This document shows, piece after piece, positions 40,820 through 43,180 of a DNA stretch of 64,000 nt. Every line of letters begins with the position of its first letter. The first letter of the stretch is position 1. Made by a program: the position numbers and the translations under genes. Under the pieces are notes generated by a model. That model did no database searches. It was not told where the DNA came from and was given only the letters and a program-made list of their open reading frames with translations. The DNA is from Escherichia coli (lineage in GTDB: Bacteria; Pseudomonadota; Gammaproteobacteria; Enterobacterales; Enterobacteriaceae): the NCBI RefSeq assembly GCF_013122565.1, contig NZ_CP053258.1, one strand, 5' to 3'.

Positions 40820-42169
40820 TTAGATAGCCCAGCCACCCGCATAGAAGGTCACCAGCGCCACGGCGATAACGACCGTACCGATGTTCAACTTGCGCCATTC
40901 GCCGGAAACCAGACGACCAATCACCAGAGTCGCGAAGCCGATCATAATGCCTGTTACGATGTTACAGGTCAGCACGATGAATACCGCCGTAACCAGCCCC
41001 GCCATCGCATCAACAAAATCAGCAAAGTCGATTTTCGCCACGTTACTCAGCATTAGCAGGCCAACGTACATCAGCGCCGGAGCCGTTGCGTACCCCGGAA
41101 CGAGGTAAGAGAGCGGAGAGAGGAACAGAATCAGCAGGAACAGCACGCCAACGGTGATAGCCGTCAAACCGGTTTTACCGCCCGCCGCCGTACCCGCCGC
41201 AGACTCGATGTATACCGCTGCCGGAGCTGCACCCACCAGGCCAGAGAAAACGCTGCTCATGGAGTCAGTGGTCAGGGCTTTCCCGCCGTCGATGATCTGC
41301 CCATCTTTATCCAGCAGGTTCGCCTGGCCGGCGACGGCGCGGATAGTTCCGGTGGCATCAAATACTGCCGTCATCACCAGCGCCAGAACGCTTGGCAGGA
41401 CTACAGGATTCAGCGCGCCCATAATGTCCAGGCTGCCAATCAGTGAATTGCCGTTTTCATCGCTCAATGAAGGCATGGCGAAAACGCCGGAGAAATGGAC
41501 GTTAGGATCGAAGATCAAACCGACAATTGAGATACCGATAATGGTCAGCAGAATGCCACCAGGGACTTTCAGTTTTTCCAGGCCGATGATCACCGCCAGA
41601 CCTACCAGTGACATAATCACCGGGAAGGTCGCGAAATCACCCAGCGCAACGGGCAGACCATCAAGCGGGTTTTTAATCACCAGACCGACACCATTAGCAG
41701 CAATGAGCAGCAGGAACAGACCGATACCGATCCCCGTGCCGTGCGCCACACCGTGCGGCAAGTTGCGCAAAATCCAGCTACGGATACCCGTGGCAGAAAT
41801 GACCGTAAATAGCACACCCATCAGGAACACGGCACCCAGTGCGACAGGTACGCTAATATGTTGCCCCAGCACCAGGCTGAATGCGGTAAACGCCGTCAGG
41901 GAGATGGCGCAACCAATCGCCAACGGCAGATTAGCCCACAGACCCATCACGATAGAACCGAGTCCGGCAACCAGACAGGTCGCAACGAAAACTGCCGCAG
42001 GCGGGAAGCCCGCTTTACCCAACATGCCTGGAACGACGATAACCGAGTAGACCATCGCCAGAAACGTTGTTAACCCGGCAACCACTTCCTGACGGACAGT
42101 GCTTCCACGTTGTGAAATTTTAAACCAGGCGTCGAGTGAACCGCCGGTACGCGCTGATGGCGTAGACAT
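40820..42169 (-). CDS. ghxP: Guanine/hypoxanthine permease GhxP (NCS2/AzgA family)
   Basis: 449 aa polytopic transporter. Confidence 0.85.
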
Positions 42170-42589
42170 AAGAGAACATCCCCTGAGAGTTTAATTTGCG
42201 TCAAGATGCGTGGCGGACAATCCCCTGCCAGCGAAACGTTATCTTCCTGCTCCAGGTTTGCGACAATTTGCTGCGTCGCAAAAAAGCAAACGTTTAGCTC
42301 CGCGCATACAAAACGGGTGGTAAAAAAAAGCAAACGATTATCCGGCGATCATAGCGGCTTTTTCAACCGAAGTTTGCTGCTTTTTTCTCTTTTATTGTCT
42401 TGACGATGAAAAACCAGGCAATTGATGCGCAAACGTTATCGTCGATGCGCAAGATTGCAGCGTTATCGAGCCATATACCGTTCAGGATTGCGATAAAAAA
42501 TCGTCTGAGATGACAAAAATATTGCGGCTAAAAAGTATACTTTTACACTGGCGAAGAAACGCCGGTGACATACAATTAAAGCATCAACA

Positions 42590-42727
42590 CCAACCGGAAC
42601 CTCCACCACGTGCTCGAATGAGGTGTGTTGACGTCGGGGGAAACCCTCCTGTGTACCAGCGGGATAGAGAGAAAGACAAAGACCGGAAAACAAACTAAAG
42701 CGCCCTTGTGGCGCTTTAGTTTTGTTC
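42590..42727 (+). ncRNA. ryjA: Candidate small RNA (RyjA-like) ending at a bidirectional terminator; 5' end approximate
   Basis: Plus-strand intrinsic terminator (CTAAAGCGCCC-TTGTG-GGCGCTTTAG then TTTTGTT) at 42695-42727 with no plus-strand CDS upstream; K-12 has ryjA between ghxP and soxR. Confidence 0.3.
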
Positions 42728-43180
42728 ATCTTCCAGTAAGCGTGCGCCGGTACCTTCTTCTCCTAAGCGGTCGCCCGGGTTACGCAACGGGCAATCACTG
42801 CGCGAAAGGCAGCCACAACCAATACATCCGTCCAGTTCGTCACGCAGCGCCACTAAGGTATGAATGCGCCGATCCAACTCTTCTCGCCATTGGGACGAAA
42901 GCTGTTTCCACTCTTTCGCACTTAACGTATGCCCTTCGGGCAACACGCCAAACGCTTCACCAATGGTCGCCAGTGGAATGCCAATACGCTGAGCAATTTT
43001 GATAATTGCGACATATCGCAACACATCACGTTTATATCGTCGCTGATTGCCGCTATTACGGATACTGGTAATCAACCCTTTGCTTTCATAGAAATGCAGC
43101 GCCGATACCGCCACACCGCTGCGTTTCGCCACTTCGCCGGGGGTTAGCAGCGCTTTAATGCGGGGTAATTTCTTTTCCAT
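42716..43180 (-). CDS. soxR: Redox-sensing MerR-family activator SoxR
   Basis: MerR HTH; C-terminal [12 protein letters not shown] [2Fe-2S] motif; 154 aa. Confidence 0.95.

Follow-up and report, generated by a model that had tools for sequence, protein, structure and literature searches.

The RyjA (SraL) small RNA gene between ghxP and soxR of Escherichia coli, its putative σS-type promoter, conserved fold and terminator hairpin

The stretch of DNA analyzed here, hereafter the window, comprises 64,000 nucleotides of the Escherichia coli contig NZ_CP053258.1 (assembly GCF_013122565.1). Within it, ghxP and soxR both lie on the minus strand, and the interval between them holds a small RNA gene on the plus strand, together with a putative promoter and a terminator hairpin that reaches into the end of soxR (Table 1). 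The first-pass annotation of this DNA, made without database searches, had proposed a short plus-strand, "RyjA-like" small RNA of about 140 nt at 42590-42727, had pointed out that no plus-strand coding sequence lies upstream, and had named an Rfam search as a way to check the proposal; the orientation of the two flanking genes agrees with the second of these points.

Table 1. Features of the ghxP–soxR interval; positions count from the first nucleotide of the window.
Feature	Position	Strand	Details and basis
ghxP	40820-42169	-	ORF list
-35-like hexamer CTGGCG	42548..42553	+	Read from sequence; 17-nt spacer to -10
-10 hexamer TACAAT with TAA	42571..42579	+	Putative σS-type core promoter; TACAAT (-12..-7) at 42571-42576, TAA (-6..-4) at 42577-42579
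RyjA / SraL small RNA	42583..42723	+	141 nt; Rfam RF01408 sraL and identity to K-12 ryjA
5′ stem-loop domain	42583..42632	+	Outer helix 42583-42589 with 42626-42632; inner CCUC/GAGG 42600-42603 with 42620-42623
Predicted tig-pairing site CACGUGCUCG	42607..42616	+	sRNA nt 25-34; geometry of Silva 2013
Central domain	42633..42677	+	Closing helix GUC/GAC 42633-42635 with 42675-42677; Rfam consensus, MFE, RNAalifold
Central-domain hairpin GGG/CCC	42636-42638 with 42644-42646	+	Rfam consensus, MFE, RNAalifold
Central-domain hairpin UCCUG/CGGGA	42647-42651 with 42660-42664	+	Rfam consensus, MFE, RNAalifold
A/G-rich single-stranded linker UAGAGAGAAAGACAAAGACCGGAAAACAA	42665..42691	+	Conserved
U-tract, soxR direction	42687..42694	-	UUUGUUUU after the 10-bp core, 7 U in 8; reverse complement
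Terminator hairpin	42692..42722	both	13 perfect bp, 5-nt loop
soxR coding sequence	42716..43180	-	ORF list; overlaps RyjA by 8 nt
U-tract of the RyjA terminator	42720..42727	+	UUUUGUUC after the 10-bp core stem; read from sequence

When the whole window was scanned against Rfam 15 at gathering thresholds, the interval returned a match to RF01408 (sraL) of 153.3 bits (gathering score 39, E = 1.1e-34) that spans model positions 1-142 of 142 and is thus untruncated. The same segment, 42583-42723 on the plus strand, is identical at 141 of 141 positions to the annotated K-12 ncRNA ryjA (b4459). It is the gene for RyjA (SraL), a known small RNA of E. coli; what had been put forward as a candidate resembling RyjA is RyjA itself, a described gene. 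The proposed interval was close, although the 5′ end lies at 42583, 7 nt upstream of the start given there, and no evidence contradicting the identification as RyjA was found. In the K-12 MG1655 record, ryjA occupies 4277926-4278066 and soxR 4277469-4277933, an overlap of 8 nt as in the window, and the two loci further share the position between ghxP and soxR, the terminator, the σS-type promoter elements and the predicted 7 + 3 bp pairing with tig. They do not differ inside the RNA, whereas the 413-nt intergenic region upstream holds seven differences, one of which (42562) falls in the promoter spacer. The RNA is present in 5420 of 5426 complete E. coli genomes, with at least 99% identity in 5400 of them, whereas a 401-bp segment including the RNA flanks reaches at least 99% identity in only 1401 genomes.

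RyjA/SraL is already known: its discovery in E. coli dates from 2001, it accumulates during stationary phase (PMC3753932), Rfam has a family for it, and the K-12 record carries it as an annotated gene. RefSeq E. coli records annotated with PGAP, such as NZ_CP091026.1, list only soxR under the match and no ryjA, which explains why the gene could look unannotated. The discovery value is accordingly small, but since most automatically annotated RefSeq E. coli records omit ryjA, its rediscovery from sequence was sensible.

The RNA ends in a Rho-independent terminator consisting of a 13-bp stem, a 5-nt loop and a U-tract, and the annotated 3′ end of K-12 ryjA maps to 42723. The 10-bp core of the hairpin at 42695-42719, CTAAAGCGCC-CTTGT-GGCGCTTTAG, encloses a 5-nt loop and grows with its flanks to the perfect 13-bp stem. 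A perfect hairpin had been claimed here and is present, although the form quoted for it, CTAAAGCGCCC-TTGTG-GGCGCTTTAG, has one extra G and is absent from the window; the extra G is a transcription slip that leaves the conclusion unaffected. The A-runs on its left and the T-runs on its right, which had also been noticed, are seen in the flanks GGAAAACAAA and TTTTGTTCATCTT, respectively. Just 7 distinct perfect hairpins in the whole window have stems of 10 bp or more. The one at 42692-42722 is the longest of them, and since 30 dinucleotide shuffles held a mean of 0.4 hairpins of at least 10 bp and none of at least 13 bp, it is beyond chance. On the minus strand it folds with -26.1 kcal/mol (z = -6.2), and 0 of 200 shuffles folded as well. 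Features of a bidirectional intrinsic terminator, a stable stem followed by a U-tract, are present on both strands; a simple terminator scan gave a hit at the hairpin on the plus strand only, because the minus-strand tail past the 13-bp stem has 4 U in 8.

To compare the RNA across species, one genome per species was scanned with an exact pattern (CCGGAACCTCC, 24-40 nt, GGGGGAAACCC), which retrieved 99 loci from other species of Enterobacteriaceae, including Escherichia, Salmonella, Citrobacter, Enterobacter, Klebsiella, Raoultella, Kosakonia, Buttiauxella, Cedecea, Leclercia and others. The two segments of the search pattern are invariant by ascertainment, GGGGGAAACCC being invariant because it is part of that pattern, and the remaining positions were free to vary. 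The alignment comprised 91 distinct sequences, and its consensus fold as given by RNAalifold consists of an outer 5′ helix, an inner CCUC/GAGG pairing, a small central domain and the terminator, in agreement with the Rfam consensus and the single-sequence minimum free energy (MFE) structure except in the apical part of the 5′ domain.

Over the alignment, 98.6% of the cells were paired, compared with 36-57% when the partners were slid by 1-3 columns, and nine pairs changed on both sides against a shuffle mean of 4.5, a number that 0 of 500 shuffles attained. In the outer helix, which is also found in the Rfam consensus, four of the seven pairs covary (AU/GC in 72/17 sequences, GC/AU in 60/25, CG/UA in 76/6 and AU/GC in 60/18), and three of the five pairs of the UCCUG/CGGGA hairpin changed on both sides. 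The secondary structure is therefore conserved and supported by covariation, with the two pattern-fixed segments invariant by ascertainment. Hardly any sequence variation is seen among the 91 orthologues in the terminator stem or in the purine-rich linker (GAAAGACAAAGACCGG). The linker lay outside the search pattern, is unpaired in all predicted structures, and its GAAAGAC.AAGACCGG is invariant or nearly so in the 91 sequences; it could possibly serve as an Hfq-binding or target-pairing region.

An open frame of 26 codons runs through the same RNA from an ATG at 42618 to a TAA at 42696-42698 on the plus strand, so that a dual-function RNA that also encodes the peptide MRCVDVGGNPPVYQRDREKDKDRKTN might be considered. 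The frame stays open for at least 23 codons in 74 of the 91 orthologues, but a start codon (ATG, GTG or TTG) occurs in only 43 of the 91, the others having CTG, ACG or CCG, and the sequence upstream (GUGCUCGA) has no purine-rich Shine-Dalgarno element. The ATG also lies within a conserved helix, some orthologues carry frame-breaking indels (not multiples of three) in the variable loop, and the apparent conservation of the peptide follows from a nucleotide invariance that the RNA structure already explains. A coding role is thus very improbable, and the ORF at 42618-42698 was rejected for its missing Shine-Dalgarno element, the start codon in 43 of 91 orthologues and the frame-breaking indels.

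The putative promoter of RyjA was compared in 97 distinct upstream sequences of the related loci, anchored at the 5′ end of the small RNA; the search pattern that retrieved the loci did not extend to the -10 and TAA positions. The A at -11, the A at -9 and the T at -7 are invariant (97 of 97), the T at -12 occurs in 85 of 97, and T, A and A at -6, -5 and -4 occur in 83, 95 and 80 of the 97, respectively. The consensus at -35 to -30 is CTGGCA, with an invariant G at -32 and a T at -34 in 86 of 97. The -35 element of the window matches TTGACA in only three of six positions, and because it is this weak, a simple σ70 scan missed the ryjA promoter; weak resemblance to TTGACA has been reported for σS promoters (PMC3753932). 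The same conserved -10 and A/T-rich discriminator were described by Silva et al. 2013 as an arrangement characteristic of RpoS promoters, and in Salmonella an rpoS mutant loses SraL, promoter-lacZ activity is rpoS-dependent, and RpoS ChIP enriched the SraL promoter more than 100-fold (PMC3753932). These elements suggest that RyjA has its own σS-type promoter, conserved across Enterobacteriaceae, with RpoS dependence measured in Salmonella.

With the fold and the promoter in view, the simplest objection to an RNA gene at this locus can be weighed, namely that the hairpin is merely the terminator of soxR and that any plus-strand RNA is noise from read-through and not the product of a gene. The position of the soxR stop in the stem, the very stable fold of the minus strand and the PGAP-annotated RefSeq genomes that list only soxR here would all suit this explanation. 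However, a curated RNA family is matched over the entire 110 nt that precede the hairpin, compensatory base changes occur in this part of the RNA, a conserved -10/TAA promoter stands at a fixed distance from the 5′ end, and the expression and function of RyjA are published. The family match, the covariation and the conserved promoter led us to reject the explanation, whose probability we regard as negligible. A RyjA/SraL gene with its own σS-type promoter, a three-part fold and an intrinsic terminator is almost certainly the best overall explanation of the locus.

As a working model, RyjA would be transcribed from the TACAAT and TAA elements at 42571-42579 with the weak -35 element at 42548-42553, and its transcription would end at the hairpin 42692-42722 and the following U-tract, acting as an intrinsic terminator. 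The transcript would fold in three parts: a 5′ stem-loop would present the bases that pair with tig, a small central domain would follow, and a single-stranded, purine-rich linker would lead to the terminator. It would function as a trans-acting small RNA that represses tig by pairing just upstream of the Shine-Dalgarno sequence, as published, and its decay would be initiated by polyadenylation, likewise as published. In E. coli, RNA-seq detects full-length, polyadenylated RyjA, and few transcripts are up-regulated as strongly as this one in a pcnB mutant (PMC5389530); RyjA is also starvation-induced and listed as RpoS-regulated (bioRxiv 10.1101/2024.06.20.599902). Overexpression of RyjA gave no biofilm or motility phenotype, and a literature search for RyjA together with RIL-seq found no papers.

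The experiments on RpoS control and on the tig and rho targets come from Salmonella SraL, an orthologue that shares its fold, its promoter elements and a convergent soxR with the E. coli RNA. It differs from the present locus in its upstream flanking gene, which is STM4267 and not ghxP directly, and in the soxR stop, which lies about 31 nt past the end of the small RNA, as opposed to inside the hairpin here. Salmonella SraL represses tig through 7 bp + 3 bp of pairing just upstream of the Shine-Dalgarno sequence, and this pairing was validated by compensatory chromosomal mutations and gel shifts (Silva 2013, PMC3753932). In a local duplex scan of the E. coli tig leader, 7 + 3 bp could be formed between sRNA nt 25-34 and CGAGCAC-U-GUG; since a chance complement of at least 7 nt arose in 335 of 1000 shuffles, this complementarity is consistent with the published site and is not significant alone. 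Whole-length duplex prediction against the tig and rho leaders gave long duplexes no better than shuffles.

SraL also pairs with the rho leader in Salmonella and prevents premature Rho-dependent termination, according to the accounts of Silva 2019 given in reviews (PMC6582626, PMC12360218). A windowed scan of the rho leader found 17 of 40 shuffles as good as the real small RNA, and the best duplex of the purine-rich linker with this leader (-152 to -128, -17.5 kcal/mol) was equalled by 39 of 300 shuffles, so that a specific rho-pairing site could not be located by these scans. We infer that tig and rho would be targets in the present strain as well, as has been demonstrated in Salmonella. Hfq affects the stability of SraL, and Hfq co-immunoprecipitation in Salmonella at early stationary phase yielded 0 SraL reads, so that the stability data are the basis for labelling the Rfam family as "Hfq binding".

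The overlap with soxR, which had also been remarked upon in the first-pass annotation, is real: the 3′ arm of the hairpin contains 42716-42718, whose reverse complement is the TAA stop of soxR. As a perfect palindrome with A-rich and U-rich flanks, the hairpin most likely terminates the convergent soxR transcript in E. coli, too. With the stop codon inside the stem, a terminating ribosome could hinder formation of the hairpin on translated soxR mRNA. Among the related loci, a convergent soxR follows immediately downstream of the small RNA in 98 of 99, and, measured from the 3′ end of the small RNA, its stop falls at -11 to +16 nt in 64 of these 98 loci and at a distance of at least 17 nt in 29. 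Because soxR is convergent and its stop lies at or near the end of the small RNA, the hairpin very probably ends both transcripts, as judged from sequence features only. The curated E. coli Term-seq 3′ ends of Adams et al. 2021 list neither ryjA nor soxR and include no end at K-12 42779xx on either strand, so that this dataset confirms termination in neither direction.

The upstream side is more variable in arrangement, with ghxP 413-570 nt upstream of the small RNA in 18 loci (all Escherichia, many Citrobacter and a few other genera) and more than 1 kb (about 1.1-1.3 kb) upstream in 57 others, a distance that points to an extra gene in between, called STM4267 in the Salmonella papers. As a separate observation, the stem (ACTAAAGCGCC / GGCGCTTTAGT) keeps almost the same sequence in many genera, including loci in which tens of nucleotides separate it from the soxR stop, and its conservation is therefore not explained by the overlap with soxR coding sequence.

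A class of bidirectional terminators that lie between convergent genes has been described in E. coli (Ju et al. 2019, as cited in bioRxiv 10.1101/2022.10.23.513370), and the same preprint reports collision-assisted termination at such terminators. The ryjA/soxR hairpin resembles this class, as there described, in being one hairpin between convergent units, from which overlapping complementary 3′ ends would be expected. However, the class was described as not resembling intrinsic terminators, whereas the hairpin studied here looks like a canonical intrinsic terminator in both directions, with a GC-rich stem and 6-7 U in 8.

This geometry raises the question of whether RyjA might act mainly in cis on soxR, in that convergent σS-driven transcription or the approximately 30 nt of complementary 3′ ends would modulate the termination, mRNA stability or level of soxR. 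The convergent arrangement in 98 of 99 species with the soxR stop at -11 to +16 nt in 64, the unusual sequence invariance of the terminator stem, and the collision-assisted termination described at E. coli bidirectional terminators (bioRxiv 10.1101/2022.10.23.513370) would be compatible with such a role. Nevertheless, the annotated overlap with soxR coding sequence is just 8 nt, validated trans targets exist, the synteny may represent plain vertical inheritance, the stop lies at least 17 nt from the sRNA end in 29 of 98 loci, and no cis effect is reported in the literature found. A mainly cis-acting RyjA is thus unlikely. The related proposal that two stress systems may be linked in cis through the shared hairpin, with σS-driven stationary-phase RyjA colliding or forming duplexes with soxR transcripts and thereby tuning SoxR levels, is given an equally low probability.

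One genetic observation touches on the cis proposal. Constitutive soxR alleles cluster at the C-terminus, and Nunoshiba and Demple (1994) reportedly found that C-terminal truncations of SoxR lead to constitutive activity. SoxR G143D is constitutive, and our search of the literature for SoxR C-terminal truncations giving constitutive activity found only this G143D statement. In the genome-reduced strain DGF-298, removal of ryjA together with a soxR shortened by 8 codons coincides with a constitutively active SoxS regulon, which would favor an effect of RyjA on soxR in cis but is confounded by the truncation of SoxR, and the authors of that work dismissed a link between the ryjA deletion and the SoxS regulon (PMC11481515). 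Whichever way soxR is affected, the terminator of the small RNA overlaps the soxR stop, so that a clean deletion of ryjA is impossible without touching soxR, a point relevant to genome reduction (PMC11481515).

Some further features of the window were recorded beside the RyjA gene. The region upstream of ghxP (42230-42440) holds a cluster of GCAAACGTTT-like motifs. The motif is present in exact form at 42286-42295, its sole exact occurrence in the window; copies with one mismatch stand at 42330 and 42429, and the minus strand has overlapping copies at 42234, 42288 and 42431. We take the GCAAACGTTT motif to resemble a PurR operator half-site, which would presumably fit the purine transporter gene ghxP. 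Five Rfam matches to naRNA4 (RF02564), which are REP-type repeats, scored 71-102 bits (2100-2276, 23276-23346, 24667-24737 and 35272-35343). Finally, SECIS_2 (RF01988) was matched at 20753-20807 on the plus strand with 87.1 bits against a gathering score of 70; the family comprises bacterial selenocysteine insertion elements, and the one here presumably belongs to a selenoprotein gene, for example that of a formate dehydrogenase.
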